Shown piece by piece: positions 4,480 to 56,663 of a DNA stretch of 64,000 nucleotides. Each line of letters opens with the position of its first letter. Position 1 is the first letter of the stretch. The position numbers were made by a program, and so were the translations under genes. The DNA is taken from the IMG/VR virus record IMGVR_UViG_3300042562_001169; one strand, written 5' to 3'. Under the pieces are notes generated by a model. It was not told where the DNA came from and made no database searches. It worked only from the letters and a program-made list of their open reading frames with translations. The stretch is from a virus. Its lineage: Duplodnaviria > Heunggongvirae > Uroviricota > Caudoviricetes.

Positions 4480-5565
4480 ATGAGAATTATAATTAAAGAA
4501 AACCAATATTTTAAAATATTAGAGAATACTGATATAGAACCGTCAAAAACAACTATTAAAAACATTTGTGATAGTGAGAAGTTCTGTAAAGCCCAAGGTA
4601 AGATTACCTTTGGTCAGTTACGAGCAATTGTTGAGAGTGCTACAAAACAAAGAATATTTAAACACGTTGGTGAAGGTGGTGTTAAAGCGACAATTAGATT
4701 ATTGCCTTGGTTCTTACCACAACTTATGATTCCTGGTATTGTTGGTGGAGTTATTAGAGCCGTTAACAAAATATTAAAACCAAGTTTAACTGAAACTGAA
4801 AATTATAAAACTTTTTGGGGTAAAGTAATTCTTAAATCATTTCAGGTTGCTGAGGGTGATTTACATTTAAGTGACCCCTTCTCTAAGATATTCTTCATAT
4901 CCGATGGTTTAATGACTATGATGGATGATAAATATAAAATTAGGTTTGCTAGACATATTGCAGAAATTGCTTCAAACAAACCGGATGACGAAGAAGTTCC
5001 TGAGTATTTTGTTGAGAATGAGTTAAGACATTGGGTTAACGATAAGTTTTTATTGGACCCACCATTATCATCAAGGTTAAACGAACAAGAGGAAATTGTG
5101 GATACAACACCCAACTTTAATAAATTAGTTTATCTACCTGAAGAGAAAGCTATGATTGGTGCCTATATGATTACCGGGGATAGTGGGAAGATGATTGATG
5201 TATTAAACATTCACGAACAATTGGATAATGCTGGTTTGTTTATGGATGGTGCGGAATCATACAACATTCATATATTCTTTAGTAAGTTACCAAAATCTCA
5301 AATAGAAATGTTAGGTCCGGTTGAAGGTAAAGAAGGTTTTGAATTTATTAAAATACCTTATTGGTTGTATAAGAAAATGTCTACAGAATTATCTATCAGA
5401 CGATACACAAAATTAAAAAGATTATCGATTGCTCGAAGTCAGGTAAATGATTACTTTCTTAAATTAATTAACAATCCGGATGTTGAGAGGTATTTTAATA
5501 TAGTTGATACGGATGATATTAGTCAACAAAGATTTAAATCATATCAAAGACATTACAAACCTTAA
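4480..5565 (+). CDS. hypothetical protein, 361 aa (N-term MRIIIKENQYFKIL, family-like leader)
   Basis: Long ORF preceded by the tatatttataaat motif 4 nt before the ATG. Confidence 0.55.
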   Translation: MRIIIKENQYFKILENTDIEPSKTTIKNICDSEKFCKAQGKITFGQLRAIVESATKQRIFKHVGEGGVKATIRLLPWFLPQLMIPGIVGGVIRAVNKILKPSLTETENYKTFWGKVILKSFQVAEGDLHLSDPFSKIFFISDGLMTMMDDKYKIRFARHIAEIASNKPDDEEVPEYFVENELRHWVNDKFLLDPPLSSRLNEQEEIVDTTPNFNKLVYLPEEKAMIGAYMITGDSGKMIDVLNIHEQLDNAGLFMDGAESYNIHIFFSKLPKSQIEMLGPVEGKEGFEFIKIPYWLYKKMSTELSIRRYTKLKRLSIARSQVNDYFLKLINNPDVERYFNIVDTDDISQQRFKSYQRHYKP

Positions 5566-20128: not shown

Positions 20129-20149
20129 ATTTATATGATATTTATTGTT

Positions 20150-31326: not shown

Positions 31327-31809
31327 ATGGCAAAAGAAGAAACACCAAAGGACATTACCCCAAAGAAAAGAAGGGGAATAGATATTGCAGTCAATGGACT
31401 AAGAAAGACATATCCATTTGTAATAGGGTATGAGGATGACCCGGGAGACCAATACGCAGCATCACACTACATTGATTTAATAATAGACCTACAGAAACTA
31501 TCTGACTATATGGATGTTCCTGTTAATCCCTATTGGGTGAACTTCGCAAGTCATCCGGACTATAGAAGGATATACTCCTTATGGTCCTACCTGAAGTTCC
31601 CCGAGGAAATTGAGGTTACATATGATAGAGACATATCAAACCATCCCGGATATAAATTGGGGAAGGATGTAATCTATCTACTTGAATCTATATATGAATA
31701 CATCCCCGAGGAATACAAACTGTTCTATGAGTTCACCTCTGAGTTTGCCCCCGACAAACCTATGACACTCCCCGTGACTCTAAAGGTTAACGGATACATT
31801 ATGACATAA
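31327..31809 (+). CDS. hypothetical protein (island gene, atypical codon usage)
   Basis: ORF preceded by atatatttatctgt. ccc/aga/ata-rich codon usage. Confidence 0.45.
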   Translation: MAKEETPKDITPKKRRGIDIAVNGLRKTYPFVIGYEDDPGDQYAASHYIDLIIDLQKLSDYMDVPVNPYWVNFASHPDYRRIYSLWSYLKFPEEIEVTYDRDISNHPGYKLGKDVIYLLESIYEYIPEEYKLFYEFTSEFAPDKPMTLPVTLKVNGYIMT

Positions 31810-31901
31810 GGTCATGTTCATAACCTGTTGATAACTTCTTATCATAAGTTATTAACAACTGTCACCCTGTCATGTTGATAACTTTATTTGGATATATCGA
31901 A

Positions 31902-31935
31902 TACACTCCCTACCCCCCTATAATTACATAGGGGG
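31902..31935 (+). terminator. rho-independent terminator
   Basis: cccccctataattacatagggggttttttt. Confidence 0.55.
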
Positions 31936-32040
31936 TTTTTTTGACCCCTCCCCGGTAAACACCCCCCATACCCCCTCCCTTACTACCGTGGGGGTATCCC
32001 CCCTCCCCTCCCTCCCCCTATAATAGTCCAAATAGGGGGG
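31936..32040. repeat. C-tract-rich structured segment (G-quadruplex/i-motif-capable: G5-A-G3-A-G4-A-G6 on the minus strand)
   Basis: gacccctccccggtaaacaccccccataccccctcccttactaccgtgggggtatcccccctcccctccctccccctataatagtccaaatagggggg. Confidence 0.6.
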
Positions 32041-32175
32041 ATAATCCCTTCTGCAACGTCTAAGGGTAAAAAAAACTTTATATGAAAATCGTTTTAAAAT
32101 TTCTAAAAAAATTTTTGGGAAAAAATCCCCCCAATTAATGGGGTGTCCGGATAGTGAAAAAAAATTTTTGGAAAA

Positions 32176-32207
32176 ATTTGGTGGGAATTATGGAATGTAT
32201 TATCTTT
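32176..32207 (+). promoter_or_regulatory. Bacteroidota-type promoter (TTTG ...20 nt... TAtcTTTG)
   Basis: -33 element at 32176-32179 and -7 element at 32200-32207, upstream of the 32222 ORF. Confidence 0.5.
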
Positions 32208-32221
32208 GTAAAAAATAAGAT

Positions 32222-33239: not shown

Positions 33240-33267
33240 CCCCCGCTTATGTAGTTGGGGGTTTTTT
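33240..33267 (+). terminator. rho-independent terminator
   Basis: cccccgcttatgtagttggggg followed by tttttt. Confidence 0.7.
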
Positions 33268-33324
33268 ATTTGACATTGGGGATATAATTGATTATTCTTT
33301 AATTCCATAAGGTATATAACAATT

Positions 33325-33732
33325 ATGGTAAAAACAAAATCAATTTCGTTTCTCAAATACAATAGGTTTGAGTTCGGAGAACAAATCGTTAGTCAATTCG
33401 TGGTCTTTGAATGTAAGTGGCTATTCTCAATCATCTTCTTTTATTTTCATAAATCTCTTGGTAGTCAGGATAGGTTTCATACCCACGCTTTTAACGCGTG
33501 GTCTGTAAAACTGTTTGGGGGATATGATGAGCACATCTTGGATGACGAGGTTGGTGGGGAATATCATATTGTTAGACGTGAGAAGGTCTTGGTTTACTTC
33601 CCCCGGGATTCGTATCATCGGATATCTAATAGTGATGGATGTATGACGGTATTGTTCTCGGGTCCTTGGAAAAAGACTTGGAAGGAATATGTTAATGGGG
33701 AAGTTGTTCACTACGGTTGGGGTCGGGAATGA
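33325..33732 (+). CDS. hypothetical protein (135 aa; higher GC)
   Basis: ORF followed immediately by copy 1 of the 43-bp GC-rich repeat. Confidence 0.4.
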   Translation: MVKTKSISFLKYNRFEFGEQIVSQFVVFECKWLFSIIFFYFHKSLGSQDRFHTHAFNAWSVKLFGGYDEHILDDEVGGEYHIVRREKVLVYFPRDSYHRISNSDGCMTVLFSGPWKKTWKEYVNGEVVHYGWGRE

Positions 33733-33743
33733 CGGACCTCTGA

Positions 33744-33786
33744 CCACCCGAACTCCCTCCGGTCGTATTCAAATCCCCCCGCCCCC
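33744..33786 (+). repeat. 43-bp GC-rich direct repeat, copy 1 (ccacccgaactccctccggtcgtattcaaatccccccgccccc)
   Basis: 41/43 identical to the copy at 35897-35938. Both copies sit directly after stop codons. Confidence 0.85.
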
Positions 33787-33803
33787 TTTTTTTGAAAAAA
33801 TAT

Positions 33804-33834
33804 TTGTTAATATAAACTTTTTATATTATCTTTG
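33804..33834 (+). promoter_or_regulatory. Bacteroidota-type promoter (TTG ...20 nt... TAtcTTTG)
   Basis: -7 box at 33827-33834, upstream of the 33855 gene. Confidence 0.5.
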
Positions 33835-33854
33835 TGGTATTAAAATAAACTACT

Positions 33855-34931
33855 ATGATAAATCAGGAATTATTGGCTGAGGCAACAAATAAATTTAAGA
33901 CATCGAATGACGACATTAAGTTAGAGGGGAATATTATTGACCTATTGATGAAATGTTATATTAAGTATGACCCATCAAAGAGGGGGAATACTCTTCAGAA
34001 GTTGATTATCGAATATTTGGGTAAAGACGTTCTTACGATTCCGGCTACTTGGAACTGTGGGGACTTTGCGTTGGGTGTAGAATCATTCAAGGGGAATAAG
34101 TTATTGAGTAAGATTTTAAAGAAATTGGATTATATCATTGGGGAGACTAAGGTTAAGGATTCTAAATCTATGATAAAGATGAGAAATGACATTATTCAAA
34201 GATTCTTTGAAATTGTTTCAACCTTCTATGAGATTAAGACATCTTATTTGAATGATAAGGGTTCCTACACAATTGGGAACATTAGGACATATCAGAATTA
34301 TCACAACTTGATTGTTTTATTGGTTGACTGTGAGGATTCGTTTAATTATAAACTTCTTTCAATTCCGAAGGAGGATTTAAAGGAGTTTAAGATGCACCAC
34401 CAACACGGAACTAAGGAATCTAACAATGATACAAAGAACCCCCATTTATCGTTTCACGTTAAGAAGGGTTCTGATATTGAAGATAGTTTAAAGAAGTGGG
34501 AGTTACCGGGAGGTTTTGAGGGATTGAACAAGGTATGTAAGATTCAAAGTAGTAAAGTTCGTAGAAATAGTTCAAAGTTGACAAAGGAACAATATGATTA
34601 CATCATAAATGATGAGGTTAAGTTATTCTTTAGTGAACGTGGTTTTGAGGATTATGTAATTGACAATGAGATTGACATTATTCCGTATATCTACAAGAAA
34701 TTCCGTAACATTAAGAAAAGTTCATATAGTAGAGGGGAATCTTATTGGGAGAATGACATGGGTGAGGTTTTATTTTATTATCAGAACCGGTCTTACATTG
34801 TATATGATAGTGTACTTGAGGATATATCTGAAAAGTTTAATTTAACTTATAAGGATGTTATGAATTATCTATCCGTATATTTTGATTTGAGGTATCCTAA
34901 TTTGAAACACTATCAGGTTTTGGAGAATTAG
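33855..34931 (+). CDS. hypothetical 358-aa protein with a possible N-terminal PD-(D/E)xK nuclease motif (E53 ... D70 ... E97-x-K99)
   Basis: ...NCGDFALG ... DYIIGETKVK... has spacing compatible with the restriction-endonuclease-like fold. Motif-level evidence only. Confidence 0.5.
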   Translation: MINQELLAEATNKFKTSNDDIKLEGNIIDLLMKCYIKYDPSKRGNTLQKLIIEYLGKDVLTIPATWNCGDFALGVESFKGNKLLSKILKKLDYIIGETKVKDSKSMIKMRNDIIQRFFEIVSTFYEIKTSYLNDKGSYTIGNIRTYQNYHNLIVLLVDCEDSFNYKLLSIPKEDLKEFKMHHQHGTKESNNDTKNPHLSFHVKKGSDIEDSLKKWELPGGFEGLNKVCKIQSSKVRRNSSKLTKEQYDYIINDEVKLFFSERGFEDYVIDNEIDIIPYIYKKFRNIKKSSYSRGESYWENDMGEVLFYYQNRSYIVYDSVLEDISEKFNLTYKDVMNYLSVYFDLRYPNLKHYQVLEN

Positions 34932-34941
34932 ATATATTGAA

Positions 34942-34972
34942 CCCCCCGCTTTTATTGGTTGGGGGTTTTTTA
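34942..34972 (+). terminator. rho-independent terminator
   Basis: accccccgcttttattggttggggg followed by tttttt. Confidence 0.7.
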
Positions 34973-35011
34973 TTTGAAATTAATTGTTTATACTTAAGAA
35001 AAAAAGTTATT

Positions 35012-35437
35012 ATGAAAAAGTTATTGTTATTATTTGCTCTGTTGTTGATGATTGGGTGTAATATGCCTGTTTATAAAACATATCACACAGATAAAATTTA
35101 TTTAAGACAATTGGTGAATCGTGATGTTACGGAAACTCATACTTCGGGTTCGTTCTTTTTGATTGCCGGTTCGGTTAGTTCGGATAGTGAAACCCAAACT
35201 GTTATAAAAGTTATGGGTGAGGTTAATGGTGAATATCGTTTTATGCAATTTGATTTTACTAAAGCAAGAATCAAAATTGATAATAAGGTCACCACCCCAT
35301 ATATTGTTTTGAATTATGTGGACGATGAAAATAAATCAGTTGATTACTTATTGGAATACGATTACAACGTAAAGTCCGTTACCATTATTTGTCCGGAACA
35401 ATATTTACCTGAGAAATTATTACCAATTCAAATATAG
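35012..35437 (+). CDS. small lipoprotein (MKKLLLLFALLLMIGC...)
   Basis: The internal ATG at 35012 gives a classic signal peptide with Cys lipobox. The track start at 34937 lies inside the terminator. Confidence 0.5.
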   Translation: MKKLLLLFALLLMIGCNMPVYKTYHTDKIYLRQLVNRDVTETHTSGSFFLIAGSVSSDSETQTVIKVMGEVNGEYRFMQFDFTKARIKIDNKVTTPYIVLNYVDDENKSVDYLLEYDYNVKSVTIICPEQYLPEKLLPIQI

Positions 35438-35444
35438 AGATATT

Positions 35445-35894
35445 ATGGAAAACGAAGATAATATAATAAACCTTGCCAACTTTTATGATGGACCTTATGG
35501 TGGTGTTCCATCTCGGATTGCAACACCTCAACCCACCTTTAATGAGTTCCCGGATAACAAGGAAATTGATGTCCCCGAAAAATTAAAGGATGTTGTTAAG
35601 AAGATGTGTCCCGAGATTTTGAATATTGTTTCGGTTGGGTATAGAGAACAAACTGTTTATAACCCTATGAACTTTGAACCGGTATACAAGTATTTGGTTG
35701 GTGTTGATTTATATTTTGATAATCATAATGGAATGAAAAAAGGTAAACACGAATATAGTAAGGAAATTGATGATTATTTTAAAATGACATACGGTAGTGA
35801 GATGGATTTTATATCCTTTCACGTTCAGTCATTTATCTTTCCCCCCGAGAAGACCACTAAGGACAAGTTCTTTGAGTTGTTTGGTAAGGTGTAA
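35445..35894 (+). CDS. hypothetical protein (149 aa)
   Basis: ORF followed by copy 2 of the GC-rich repeat. Confidence 0.45.
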   Translation: MENEDNIINLANFYDGPYGGVPSRIATPQPTFNEFPDNKEIDVPEKLKDVVKKMCPEILNIVSVGYREQTVYNPMNFEPVYKYLVGVDLYFDNHNGMKKGKHEYSKEIDDYFKMTYGSEMDFISFHVQSFIFPPEKTTKDKFFELFGKV

Positions 35895-35896
35895 CC

Positions 35897-35938
35897 CCAC
35901 CCGAACTCCCTCCGGTCGATTTCAAATCCCCCCGCCCC
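35897..35938 (+). repeat. 43-bp GC-rich direct repeat, copy 2
   Basis: ccacccgaactccctccggtcgatttcaaatccccccgcccc. Confidence 0.85.
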
Positions 35939-35981
35939 TTTTATTTTGGAGTTGGGGGATATTTATTATAAAAGATATATT

Positions 35982-36314
35982 ATGTTTTCAGCAGGTGGAG
36001 TTTATGTAATGGTAGCAGGAATCCTATTGGGATTAGCTGTTATAGGTGGGTCAGTTTATTATGTTAATAAAATGTTTGCTGATAACACTCAGGAAATATT
36101 GGTTCGGTTTATTTTATTAATATTCACCTCATTGGTTGCGTTATTTATTGTTGATAAGGTAATTGCTTGGCAGGTTAAACTATTGAGTGATGAGCAGAAT
36201 GGGCAATTATTTGATTTGATTAAAACATTGGTGTTAATGATATTCTCGTATTACTTTGGAACTAAAGAAGGAGTTGAAACCAATGGTGACCAAAATAAGA
36301 AAGATAAAGAATGA
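35982..36314 (+). CDS. small membrane protein (3 TM)
   Basis: The ATG at 35982 is preceded by gggggatatttatt. The track start at 35946 lies in the repeat/terminator. Confidence 0.45.
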   Translation: MFSAGGVYVMVAGILLGLAVIGGSVYYVNKMFADNTQEILVRFILLIFTSLVALFIVDKVIAWQVKLLSDEQNGQLFDLIKTLVLMIFSYYFGTKEGVETNGDQNKKDKE

Positions 36315-44335: not shown

Positions 44336-45769
44336 TCAAATTTGTTTTCCATATTCAATAACGGTTTCAGTTTTTTCTTCTTGACGGTGACCGCCAACAT
44401 AAGTTCCACATACTTTATTACCATTATCAATCACGTCCTCAATTTGAGTCTCCCATCTAATATATAGAAGACTTGTTGATGGGTCGGTATAATTTCCTGA
44501 CATAGTTTTTTTTACACCGTTTTTAATCACACCATTAATTCTTCCTTTGTGGTGATATACATCTTCATAGGTTTCTTTAACACCTTCACTAATAACGTCC
44601 TTTATTAAATCTGTTGGGACATCCCAATCACATTCAATGGTGTCCGTAATACCTTTGTTAATAATCTTATCAATTATGTTTTCACCAACATATTGACGTG
44701 GGGTGGAACTTCTCACACCATCTCTAACGACAAGATGTGATTCTAAAATAAGTTCTCTACCGCTAGTATCTAAAATCAGAAGAGCATTCTTTTTTTGTTT
44801 TGTTTCTTTTACACCATTTTTAAGTGCGTCTTCCATTTTATTATCAAAAAATTTCATCACATCAACGTGACTAGTTTCTTTAACACCAATATCAATCACT
44901 TTATAAGCATCAACCCTAAGTTTTGACATATGATATTTAGTTTCCTTCACACCCTTATCAATTACTTCTTCACATAAAAATTGGAATTTATCTCCCGATT
45001 TGGTTTCTTTCACACCTTCTTTAATGACACCATTAATCCAACTTTGATTTTCGTACTCACTATATTGAGTGTCTCTCACACCATTTTGAATAACATCTTT
45101 AACGTCACCTCTAAATCCTTTATACTCGTAAATTTCTTTCACCCCATTTTGAATGATGTCGTTAATATCTCCAAGTTTTTTATCTGAACTTCCGTTATCG
45201 GTATCTTTAACAAGGAATGGTCGATGGAAATGGAGGGGGTCAGTTTTCTTCACACCATTTTCAAGAGTACCCTCAACTGATAAGGTTCTTTTATCGCCCC
45301 AATAATCGGTGTTCTTCACCCCATTTTGAATGATATCGTCAACCCCAAGAAGAGTACGTCGTAATGTGCTATTAGTTTCTTTCACCCCATTCTCAATGGT
45401 ATCGTCAACGGACCAACACGTTTTCATATGAGCCATCTTAGTTTTATTTACACCATTTTCAAGAGTATCTTCAAATTGTTGTTTTCTATCCCGGGCATCT
45501 CTAAAGAGTGTAACATAAGTTAACTCTTTATTTATAATATTGTCTTCCACCCATTTTGTGATGAGGTGTTGATTCTGAACGCAATCCAACGAAGCGTAAG
45601 CAAAAACACTTTTAAAAAAGTTGTAATTATACCACAGAGTTTTATTCTCAGTTAATTCAATCACCCATTGTTTAGTCTCAGTAAAGATTAACCAAGTGGA
45701 ATCATTGTGGGTGTAGGTATCCACACCTTCGGTAAATTCGTTGATTAGTTTATGTATAATTTTTTCCAT
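44336..45769 (-). CDS. 477-aa protein with about 15 degenerate repeats of the motif [IV]-x-N-G-V-K-[EK]-T
   Basis: Repeats read directly (ENGVNKT, IENGVKET, IQNGVKNT, LENGVKKT, IQNGVKEI, IQNGVRDT, IKEGVKET, IDKGVKET, IDIGVKET, LKNGVKET ...). Coupled to the acyltransferase. Confidence 0.6.
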   Translation of the reverse strand: MEKIIHKLINEFTEGVDTYTHNDSTWLIFTETKQWVIELTENKTLWYNYNFFKSVFAYASLDCVQNQHLITKWVEDNIINKELTYVTLFRDARDRKQQFEDTLENGVNKTKMAHMKTCWSVDDTIENGVKETNSTLRRTLLGVDDIIQNGVKNTDYWGDKRTLSVEGTLENGVKKTDPLHFHRPFLVKDTDNGSSDKKLGDINDIIQNGVKEIYEYKGFRGDVKDVIQNGVRDTQYSEYENQSWINGVIKEGVKETKSGDKFQFLCEEVIDKGVKETKYHMSKLRVDAYKVIDIGVKETSHVDVMKFFDNKMEDALKNGVKETKQKKNALLILDTSGRELILESHLVVRDGVRSSTPRQYVGENIIDKIINKGITDTIECDWDVPTDLIKDVISEGVKETYEDVYHHKGRINGVIKNGVKKTMSGNYTDPSTSLLYIRWETQIEDVIDNGNKVCGTYVGGHRQEEKTETVIEYGKQI

Positions 45770-55391: not shown

Positions 55392-56663
55392 ATGAATAAA
55401 TTAGACAAAACATATCAGGACTTACTCCAAGACATTCTTGACAACGGAGTAGTAAAACAAGACAGAACAGGGACGGGAACAATCTCGGTATTCGGAAGAC
55501 AAATCAGACATAAAATGTCAGAAGGATTCCCATTACTTACAACCAAAAAAATGCCATTCAAAACAATCGTAACAGAACTTCTTTGGTTCTTAAGAGGTGA
55601 TACCAACATTAAGTTTTTGGTTGATAATGGATGTAATATTTGGAATGGTGATGCTTATAAGAACTACATAAATAACCCAGCTTACAAAGCTGAATCTGTT
55701 GCCGATTTAATGGGTTCACAAGCAGGTCAATTGGTAAAATGCTCAACACAAGAAGAGTTCATCAACAAAATAAAGACAGATGATGAGTTTGCTAAGAAGT
55801 GGGGTGAATTGGGTCCAATTTACGGTAAGCAATGGAGAAATTGGGGGAGGTTTGAGTATGAAGGTTTCACCCAAGAAGGTAGCGAAACATTAAATAACAT
55901 AGATGTAAATTGGAAAATACCAACAGACCAAATCCAAAACCTAATCAACGACCTTAAAACAAATCCAGACTCAAGACGATTGATGGTTAATGCTTGGAAT
56001 GTTGGAGAACTGGACCAAATGGTTCTTCCACCTTGTCATTATGGATTTCAAGTTTATACAAGAGAGTTGAGTAATGAAGAACGATTAGATTGGATGAGAG
56101 GTAATAAGTCTAAAGTAATCTTACCAATGAGAGACCCTAATATTGAGTTTTCTATGGATGAATGGTTTAGACCATACGGAGTTCCTAAACGAGCAATCTC
56201 TTTAATGTGGAATCAACGTTCAGTAGATACATTCTTAGGATTACCATTCAACATTGCTTCTTATGGATTGTTATTAGAAATAATTGCAAAAGAAGTTAAT
56301 ATGGTTCCTGACCAGTTGATTGGGAATCTTGGTGATGTTCATTTATATTCAAATCATATTGAACAAGCCAAAGAACAAATTGGAAGAGAATATACTCACC
56401 AAGAAAGAGATGAATTGTTACAACAAGAGATGGGTAGAGAAAGATATAATAAGGCGGTTGATGAATTGATGCCGTTCGGTGGGGGATTAAGTGGATATTA
56501 TGAATTTTATAAAATTCCATATAGAACAAGAGAACCTTATCGATTACCAACATTAGTAATGGTTACTAACCCCGATTTAAAGTTTGATGAATATGTTTAT
56601 GATAATTTAAAACTTGTAAACTATCAATCACATCCAACCATTAAAGCACCTTTAAGTAATTAA
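55392..56663 (+). CDS. thyA: thymidylate synthase ThyA, long form with small-domain insert and extra C-terminal insertion (423 aa)
   Basis: DRTGTGT, PLLTTKK, LPPCHYGFQVY (catalytic Cys), DTFLGLPFNIASY, GDVHLYSNH. Insert ...DEFAKKWGELGPIYGKQWR as in the L. casei/B. subtilis ThyA type. Confidence 0.9.
   Translation: MNKLDKTYQDLLQDILDNGVVKQDRTGTGTISVFGRQIRHKMSEGFPLLTTKKMPFKTIVTELLWFLRGDTNIKFLVDNGCNIWNGDAYKNYINNPAYKAESVADLMGSQAGQLVKCSTQEEFINKIKTDDEFAKKWGELGPIYGKQWRNWGRFEYEGFTQEGSETLNNIDVNWKIPTDQIQNLINDLKTNPDSRRLMVNAWNVGELDQMVLPPCHYGFQVYTRELSNEERLDWMRGNKSKVILPMRDPNIEFSMDEWFRPYGVPKRAISLMWNQRSVDTFLGLPFNIASYGLLLEIIAKEVNMVPDQLIGNLGDVHLYSNHIEQAKEQIGREYTHQERDELLQQEMGRERYNKAVDELMPFGGGLSGYYEFYKIPYRTREPYRLPTLVMVTNPDLKFDEYVYDNLKLVNYQSHPTIKAPLSN

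Follow-up and report, generated by a model that had tools for sequence, protein, structure and literature searches.

A family of C-rich gene-boundary repeats confined to one variable locus of uncultivated low-GC jumbo phages

Introduction

Hyperplastic regions filled with ORFans are where phages evolve fastest, and to our knowledge few sequence elements besides the PeSLs of T4-like phages have been tied to the organisation of such regions. PeSLs are conserved composite terminator/promoter motifs found on either side of ORFans in the hyperplastic regions of T4-type phages; through them, homologous recombination shuffles modules (Arbiol et al. 2010 PMC2839356; Comeau et al. 2014 PMC4122927). Here we analyse a C-rich direct repeat in a stretch of 64,000 nucleotides (nt) from a virus of the class Caudoviricetes (IMG/VR record IMGVR_UViG_3300042562_001169); the whole stretch is called the window, and positions are counted from its first letter. 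A first-pass annotation of the window had noted the repeat on either side of three genes and offered two readings of it, a boundary left behind by cassette exchange or recombination and a shared 3′ RNA element.

The element resembles PeSLs in several respects. Both are repeated, conserved intergenic motifs that flank ORFans in hyperplastic regions; in both, a GC-rich part is joined to an AT-rich tract and leads into the next gene, PeSLs by way of a host-type promoter and the present element, in some copies, by way of a putative one; in both cases genome differences between relatives map to the motifs, and both have been proposed as sites of regulation and of homologous exchange. It departs from them in its GC-rich part, which is poly-C only, with no stem-loop, poly-G partner or covariation and a folding energy of −2.6 kcal/mol. 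It is also present as 2–4 copies per genome in one region of a few kb, whereas PeSLs occur in many copies in several regions, and about half of its copies precede a gene-start motif, ATATTTAT, instead of a recognisable promoter. Finally, it belongs to another phage lineage, with a presumed Bacteroidota host, and is known here from sequence alone. Because the GC-rich part is not a stem-loop, we regard the element as one that would work like a PeSL and not as a member of the PeSL family.

Results

A C-rich repeat family in uncultivated jumbo phages

The two copies of the repeat lie in direct orientation on the + strand at 33744–33793 and 35897–35946, and are 46/50 identical (92%) when the alignment is extended through the T-run that follows each copy, confirming that the repeat is real. 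The identity of 41/43 originally reported for it is slightly too high: the 43-mer CCACCCGAACTCCCTCCGGTCGTATTCAAATCCCCCCGCCCCC at 33744–33786 recurs at 35897–35939 with 3 mismatches (40/43), and no such match arose in 100 dinucleotide shuffles. Copy 1 (33744–33786; nhmmer E = 2.5e-15) is made up of the core CCGAACTCCCTCCGGTCG (33748–33765), the linker TATTCAAAT and a C6-G-C5 tail (33775–33786), and copy 2 (35897–35938; E = 5e-14) has the same core, the linker ATTTCAAAT and a C6-G-C4 tail. As the first-pass annotation had stated, both copies come right after stop codons, starting 11 nt past the TGA at 33730–33732 and 2 nt past the TAA at 35892–35894, and three genes lie between them, the open reading frames (ORFs) 33855–34931, 35012–35437 and 35445–35894. 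The contrast in base composition that it described is likewise present, with 67% G+C in the 43-mer against 32% in the window. Per 50 nt, the element has 24 C and 5 G, the window copies contain 19–20 YC dimers (C/G 4.6–4.8), and both are among the strongest islands of C over G on the + strand. When the rest of the 64-kb window was searched, as had been advised, neither half of the repeat gave a third or partial copy at up to 3 mismatches, and a profile search returned the two known copies and no others.

By comparison with related DNA, the repeats are members of a previously undescribed family of C-rich boundary elements, about 50 nt long, in uncultivated low-GC jumbo phages. Searches with either half recovered complete elements from IMG/VR contigs of 29–34% G+C, many of them 150–320 kb long, and metagenome contigs from JGI and ENA yielded more; a profile search over the collected DNA gave at least 50 distinct copies. 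Related genomes (individual relatives are denoted below by L numbers) carry 2–4 copies each, all on one strand and around different gene content, which is the pattern that the annotation had proposed to look for in related phages. A blastn search of INPHARED with the region or the element gave no match in deposited phage genomes, and tblastn with a large ORF gave only a weak match to Salicola phage SCTP-2. A 16-mer scan of bacterial genomes returned chance matches in GC-rich genomes, none with the full element among the 120 matches listed, and our literature search found no paper connecting such repeats to jumbo Bacteroidota phages.

The consensus (alignment A1) consists of a semi-conserved lead-in of 10–12 nt, the core cCCG-R-ACTCCCT-Y-CGGTCG, a linker of 4–8 nt ending in (C/T)AA(A)T, a tail of C6, one variable base and C4–6, and a T-run that is present in 50/50 copies with a length of 4–10 (median 7). 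The family as a whole is 51% C and 15% G, with about 20 YC dimers per 50 nt. Distant variants keep CCGRACTC...TCG...AAT-C4-6-R-C3-5-T5+, while their middle is rewritten and the CCG/CGG symmetry is gone.

Core-to-tail identity between genomes is 85% on average, and the 19 nt upstream are at background (36%); nearby orthologous proteins are 31–60% identical in several of the element-bearing genomes. In L388, a copy in an unrelated context matches copy 1 at 98% identity, and one 40-nt version, that of copy 1, is identical in four genomes in non-orthologous contexts. Copy pairs within a genome are slightly more alike than pairs between genomes (0.906 vs 0.853, p about 2e-4), which indicates some duplication or gene conversion. 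Damaged copies were also seen: an internally deleted one (CACATAAACCGAACTCCC/CCTTTTTTGG) lies at a gene junction in L388 (15945–15975), and copies truncated so that the C-tail is missing are present in L266 (2694), L279 (2080) and L281.

Conserved sequence without a stable RNA fold

The alternative that the repeat is a shared 3′ structure or a simple terminator fails in the form in which it was put forward, since the folding that the first-pass annotation had recommended shows the element to be essentially unstructured. Single copies give −2.6 kcal/mol on the + strand and about −7 kcal/mol on the − strand, both with a z-score of about 0 and with no hairpin on the + strand, and the RNAalifold consensus has 3 bp at −1.8 kcal/mol with no covariation. 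A scan for intrinsic-terminator patterns called neither window copy. Searching Rfam with the element gave nothing at gathering thresholds and, at E up to 5, only a chance-level match to RsaE (21 bits where 79 would be needed, E = 4.9).

A hairpin between CCGRA and TYCGG was considered and rejected, because the opposed R and Y vary independently (17/38 copies would have an A·C mismatch on the + strand), no covariation is present and the distant variants lack the repeat. The minus strand would pair these half-sites better, yet the counts there also fit independence. A read-through peptide, TRTPSGR.QIPPPP, for which both window copies and L138 have an open frame, was discarded on account of linker indels of 1 and 2 nt. 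In GC-rich phages, genuine tRNA genes have a T-loop, T-stem and acceptor strand identical to the last 18 nt of the element (TTCAAATCCCCCCGCCCC). Unlike an attachment core in a tRNA gene, however, the element has no 5′ T-stem, the two bases before TTCAAAT vary freely, several copies lie inside the phage genome and no integrase accompanies them. An origin from a tRNA gene or attachment site was rejected, as ARAGORN found no tRNA gene and the varying bases 5′ of TTCAAAT cannot pair with CCCCC.

The element shares with intrinsic terminators its place after a gene, its GC-richness, a T-run co-oriented with the upstream gene and a tail like the 5′ arm of the terminators of these phages; it differs from them in having no hairpin by the T-run. 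A stem could in principle be supplied from a distance, if the C6-N-C5 tail paired with an upstream or downstream G-run to set a GC stem beside the U-tract. Copy 1 and its orthologue in L126 carry GGGGTCGGG upstream, which can pair with CCCGCCCC before the T-run; the candidate partner of the copy 1 tail is the G-rich end (GGTTGGGGTCGGG, 33716–33728, +) of the upstream cupin-like gene, and pairing of the C-tail with the cupin-gene G-run is also predicted for the L126 orthologue. An upstream G-run or hairpin accompanies 27/50 copies, copy 2 can form a hairpin of −19.8 kcal/mol with the downstream GGAGTTGGGGG, and the likeness of the tail to the 5′ arm of the canonical terminators (CCCCCCGC...) would fit as well. 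We nevertheless consider a long-range stem improbable: the upstream G-run is absent from 23/50 copies, and 6 have a downstream one; the 83-nt region of copy 1 folds no better than shuffled sequence (z = +1.0); the copy 2 stem (z = −1.3) is followed by AUAUUUAU and not by a U-run; and the loop would have to span 40–50 nt.

Structures other than a hairpin were also weighed. The minus-strand G5-C-G6 and GGG tracts might form a G-quadruplex (G4), or the plus strand an i-motif, that would act as a replication, transcription-block or recombination signal. In keeping with this, the C-run lengths are kept while the separator varies in a loop-like manner (G, A, T, AG or GA), both copies reach a G4Hunter score of |1.5–1.8| and are among only six such regions in the 64 kb, and 1.8 kb upstream there is a conserved tract still more prone to form a G4. 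Tracts three and four are, however, short (CCC/CC) and missing from some copies and variants, the central loop would have a length of 16–20 nt, the upstream tract is not kept as a G4 motif in L124, L132 and L140, and nothing ties the element to an origin, which together make this the least probable of the explanations considered and a very remote one.

Junction context and register with downstream signals

The element follows stop codons by 2–17 nt. A putative promoter, TTTG-N17-22-TAnnTTTG, presumed to be of the Bacteroidota type, follows 13 copies including copy 1, and in copy 1 and 5 further copies its −33 box lies at +16/17 and its −7 box at +40/41 from the last C. At copy 1 (all on the + strand), a T7 run (33787–33793) is followed by GAAAAAATA, so that a T-tract/A-tract ending at 33802 directly adjoins the −33 box; the putative promoter of the 358-amino-acid (aa) gene then occupies 33803–33834, with TTTG at 33803–33806, 20 nt and TATCTTTG at 33827–33834, and the ATG is at 33855. 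After 27 copies, including copy 2, the motif ATATTTAT is found without a recognisable promoter, and in class A copies it lies at +16 to +20. The module 3′ of copy 2 (35939–35966, +) comprises TTTTATTTT, GGAGTTGGGGG and ATATTTAT ahead of an ATG at 35982.

The motif ATATTTAT precedes 18 gene starts in the window, often 10–11 nt past the T-run of a hairpin terminator. As the terminator T-run and the element T-run are at like spacing to ATATTTAT, the element and its T-run fill the slot of a terminator. The motif, more fully (G)ATATTTAT, lies 3–20 nt before the ATG, for example at 20138, 35959, 36638, 40045, 46881 and 47785, and sometimes directly after a hairpin that lacks a T-run; its role may be that of a promoter specific to the phage or of a signal for initiating translation.

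Orthologous junctions, at which a terminator, the element or both are present, show the element and predicted hairpin terminators to be interchangeable. Ahead of the lipoprotein gene, there is a hairpin terminator in the window and a terminator plus the element in L290, with TTTTTTATTTGAAATTAAT coming next in both. The 358-aa gene is followed by a terminator in the window, by a terminator plus the element in L404 and L406, and by the element after only half a terminator in L402. The ordinary hairpin terminators form a conserved family of their own, CCCCCCGC-TTT(T)A(T/A)TT(A/G)GTT-GGGGG-T6, whose 5′ arm is like the C-tail of the element; members are found at 33240–33270 and 34939–34971 in the window and in L001, L003, L125, L132 and L404.

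Most copies of the element lie between co-oriented genes. Convergent contexts, in which there is no downstream gene, make up about 12–14%, and divergent contexts, in which there is no upstream gene to terminate, account for a similar share (about 12–14%). A composite element covers both contexts, which neither a terminator nor a promoter site would do by itself.

As RNA, the element is similar to the rut site of lambda tR1 in being C-rich, G-poor and unstructured past a stop codon, in its many YC dimers, in lying in a phage region where control of read-through matters and in being followed by a pause-prone U-tract. It differs from rut sites in that it is shorter (about 45–50 nt) and conserved almost base for base, and in that 16/50 copies follow a hairpin terminator.

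The same features can be read as those of an operator or activator site on double-stranded DNA, at which a phage or host protein would bind the box and regulate the downstream promoter, giving locus-specific temporal control of the ORFan region; the proposed contacts are CCG-N9-CGG half-sites one helical turn apart and the C-tract. Strong conservation of the linear sequence with no RNA structure would suit such a site, as would the two variable positions that are symmetric in the CCGRA/TYCGG half-sites and vary independently, the fixed register of the −33 and −7 boxes, the divergent-context copies that lie upstream of + genes with nothing upstream on the + strand to terminate, and the restriction to one locus per genome. 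Weighing on the other side are about 6/50 copies without a downstream co-oriented gene or promoter (L007a, L125a, L127a/b, L130 and L134), the distant variants, which drop the CCG/CGG symmetry and keep the C-tail and T-run, and the 27 copies before ATATTTAT starts, where no promoter is recognisable. Moreover, the C-run lengths and the separator base are variable, which is unusual for a base-specific protein site, and no candidate regulator was found, the 160-aa neighbour having no fold match. We consider an operator unlikely; nearly base-for-base conservation together with single-locus restriction nonetheless makes a specific DNA- or RNA-binding factor a serious rival.

Confinement to one locus beside a conserved block

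Pattern scans for the strict core in whole contigs of 150–320 kb found one cluster per contig. In two of these contigs, of 308 and 208 kb, the cluster comprises 3 copies within 3.8 and 4.3 kb, respectively. A conserved 97-aa gene serves as a landmark: among 12 distinct relatives sampled over 10 kb on each side of this gene, 10 carry copies +2.2 to +7.3 kb downstream and on the strand of the gene, with one outlier at +10.2 kb; none has the element upstream of the gene, and 2/12 have no detected copy. The 97-aa gene forms a conserved block with a 160-aa gene and a C-rich non-coding region of 412 nt (31810–32221 in the window), and the element cluster is always downstream of this non-coding region. 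Confinement near the block implies that the element marks one locus and is neither a general type of terminator nor a dispersed repeat.

The non-coding region is 72–89% identical at the nucleotide level over 300–430 nt, and the flanking proteins are 31–60% identical. No other part of the window is as rich in C (C minus G = 23 per 50 nt), and the region contains TGTCA...TGTCATGTTGATAAC repeats, a hairpin terminator at 31914–31935 plus T7, several hairpins of C-runs with G-runs, the tract CCCCCCTCCCCTCCCTCCCCC, which is G4-prone on the minus strand, and a putative promoter at about 32199. It gave no Rfam match, and the consensus fold of 7 sequences was uninformative; a role as a non-coding RNA, as a control region or as an origin is conceivable.

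Neither the 97-aa nor the 160-aa protein matched any family. The 160-aa protein (31327–31809) has 90 homologous clusters, all unnamed, and its confident AlphaFold model (pLDDT 87, pTM 0.82) gave no significant fold match to solved structures in the PDB; it thus offers no lead to a binding factor.

Confinement to one locus also bears on the notion that the element is a small selfish or mobile sequence that spreads by insertion or gene conversion into the T-runs behind terminators, with no benefit to the phage. Several observations are of the kind that such a sequence would leave. At orthologous junctions, the element is an optional add-on between terminator and promoter, T-rich on both sides (e.g. 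TTTTTTATTG...TTTTTTATTTG in L290), the identical 40-nt version recurs in the unrelated contexts of four genomes, decayed, truncated and internally deleted copies exist, copies are more alike within than between genomes, and homing-endonuclease genes are frequent neighbours. It is nonetheless never dispersed: even where the genome is as large as 322 kb, the copies keep to a single syntenic cluster of a few kb and share their orientation. The element lacks terminal inverted repeats and a transposase, and its ends are unrelated (CCG... vs ...CCCCC). Retention across lineages with proteins only about 30% identical and the fixed register with downstream signals are likewise difficult to reconcile with a sequence of no use to its carrier, and a selfish origin is in our judgement quite unlikely.

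Variable gene content and homology breakpoints

What lies between copies differs from genome to genome. The window has three genes there, and L126 has one, which is related to the 358-aa gene at 28% identity. In L011 the first two copies enclose one gene, and five genes come before the next copy; in L266, four copies within 1.6 kb are separated by single small genes. The orthologue of the 358-aa gene stands alone between two identical copies in L402 and L403, and elsewhere it is accompanied by one copy only, downstream in L404 and upstream in L405. Large GIY-YIG-like genes are the cargo in L136, L142 and the L124–L007 and L140–L138 pairs, one of these also carries a serine recombinase (Pfam Resolvase, E = 2e-24), and HNH endonuclease genes are frequent neighbours of the element. 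The GIY-YIG-like proteins of 249–679 aa have repeated modules, and are the cargo of the first two copies in three relatives, at 4711–5442 in L138 (on the minus strand of the locus), 942–2978 in L136 and 4387–5133 in L007.

Pairwise DNA comparison placed homology breakpoints exactly at the edges of the element, at 33792/33793, 35894/35897 and 35968/35969. Against L393, homology ends at 33792. Against L385, it stops at 35894, and a 71-nt island (35899–35968 vs 16688–16758 in L385) is 95.8% identical between non-homologous flanks. In L391 the terminator adjoins the element, whereas in the window the cupin gene intervenes. Many neighbouring indels occur without the element, and in at least 14 near-identical assemblies of the phage the cassette order is unchanged, with only the full arrangement present. 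The cassette-exchange boundary proposed in the first pass is therefore upheld in part, by the variable content between copies and the breaks at element edges, and is countered by the want of a consistent recombinase, by the element being neither palindromic nor attC-like and by the fixed order in these assemblies.

The arrangement recalls integron attC arrays, in which direct repeats in one orientation also lie between single genes beside a conserved platform. The element differs in that it is not an imperfect palindrome, its sequence and not a structure being conserved; no integrase is found among the neighbouring or conserved-block proteins; and the cassettes here would have their own promoters, as read from sequence. 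A dedicated site-specific recombination site, of attC or res/att-like type, might still define a cassette platform if its recombinase were encoded elsewhere. The direct repeats, in one orientation and at a single locus beside the conserved block, would agree with this, as would the alternation of single genes and copies in some contigs (L266 being an example), the variable cargo that includes a serine recombinase in one genome, and the sharp homology breakpoints at the edges. Such a site is very doubtful all the same: no recombinase lies in the window neighbourhood or consistently nearby among the neighbouring and conserved-block proteins, neither strand has the inverted-repeat architecture of recombinase core sites or attC, many of the neighbouring indels do without the element, cassette order is stable across the assemblies, and the breakpoints fall at element edges instead of a fixed internal crossover point.

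Genes in and around the cassette

The gene upstream of copy 1 (33325–33732, +) encodes a 135-aa cupin/cysteine-dioxygenase-like protein (PHROG 4786, E = 1.7e-21), the sole family match nearby; it is 92% identical to its orthologue in L126, where the element follows the gene too. All three cassette genes are on the + strand and are without family matches in Pfam and PHROG searches, and no recombinase was found among them or their neighbours by these searches. The first (33855–34931) encodes a 358-aa ORFan with 14 homologues, all hypothetical, and no Pfam or PHROG match. A canonical intrinsic terminator (CCCCCCGC-loop-GGGGG-T6; −16.5 kcal/mol, z = −3.4) follows at 34939–34971 (+), within the cassette. 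The second gene (35012–35437) encodes a 141-aa lipoprotein with a MKKLLLLFALLLMIGC lipobox and has orthologues in L011 (75%), L142 and L290; the third (35445–35894) encodes a 149-aa ORFan with orthologues in other contexts in L011, L003, L125, L138 and L129.

The exact sequences of the proteins encoded at 33325–33732 and 35982–36314 are indexed in 138 and 102 blocks, respectively, of a public assembly collection, indicating that the phage is widespread; contigs carrying these proteins reach the 0.2–1 Mb class, and one copy of the phage has been binned in the NCBI assembly GCA_043533215.1 (contig JBFDNW010000023.1).

Downstream, the region contains dozens of small paralogous proteins with common short N-termini, MKIIITE(S/N), MKKV(V/I)RLTESDL..VKRVI.E, MNRSYSKIRHIQESN and MELNRFKQLLES; gene starts in the window include 36311, 36651, 37013, 37332 and 38178, and further members occur in L003, L011, L058, L266 and L378. 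The leaders all terminate in [L/I]-x-E, an ending that may resemble the cleavage motif of T4-type prohead proteases and the capsid-targeting leaders of internal proteins. Elsewhere in the window, a 477-aa ORF on the minus strand (44336–45769) consists of about 10 tandem-like units of 63–66 nt (21–22 aa; repeat families D1, D2 and D6), and a 423-aa protein of the thymidylate-synthase family (55392–56663) is matched by the family profile (266 residues) in two stretches, indicating a large insertion.

Discussion

Our leading explanation, offered tentatively, is that the element is a PeSL-like punctuation and linker element, combining a hairpin-independent terminator or insulator with a crossover point. 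The box would stand between the end of one gene and the expression signals of the next in the hyperplastic ORFan region of these jumbo phages. There it would end or attenuate upstream transcription by a hairpin-independent and probably factor-dependent route, for example Rho loading followed by the U-tract; this route is proposed because the RNA is unstructured, C-rich and G-poor. The T-tract/A-tract would in turn be the upstream part of the next promoter, the T-run and A-run being placed as an UP element is in the promoter architecture of E. coli. Since some 45 nt vary hardly at all among the copies and among the related genomes, the box would also be a preferred crossover point for homologous recombination, by which adjoining genes may be inserted, deleted or swapped and the observed mosaicism may have arisen. 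The two readings given in the first pass, a recombination boundary and a 3′ element, are thereby combined, as a regulatory boundary element that would also act as a recombination linker.

Several points weigh against this explanation. The T-run has no hairpin ahead of it, which excludes classical intrinsic termination for most copies, and with its length of about 45–50 nt the box does not reach the usual size of a Rho loading site. Its exact conservation goes beyond the need of a purely compositional signal, which hints at a specific binding partner. For 16/50 copies a canonical terminator stands immediately before the element, which would make a further one redundant, and general-purpose terminators would not keep to one region of a few kb per genome. 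As for recombination, phage mosaic junctions in general fall between genes anyway, and the unchanged cassette order in at least 14 assemblies means that exchange is not frequent on short time scales.

A bolder and less likely possibility is that the box is a new hairpin-independent signal read by a specific factor (a phage protein, Rho or a phage RNA polymerase) and defines a dedicated cassette platform. Such a platform would be a single locus beside the conserved non-coding control region, at which injected-protein and ORFan genes would be expressed and exchanged, in an integron-like layout with another mechanism. The selfish, long-range-stem, site-specific and G4/i-motif explanations are all rated below that of a specific binding factor.

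If the favoured explanation holds, the logic of PeSLs would recur in an unrelated, uncultivated and abundant clade of jumbo phages. A GC-rich part that is incapable of forming a hairpin and is more conserved than nearby proteins points to hairpin-independent termination or insulation in Bacteroidota phages, or else to a binding factor, and a factor-read cassette platform, if real, would give jumbo phages an integron-like site of gene exchange that works by a different mechanism. In either event, the element of about 45 nt is a practical marker for finding this variable locus in metagenomes.

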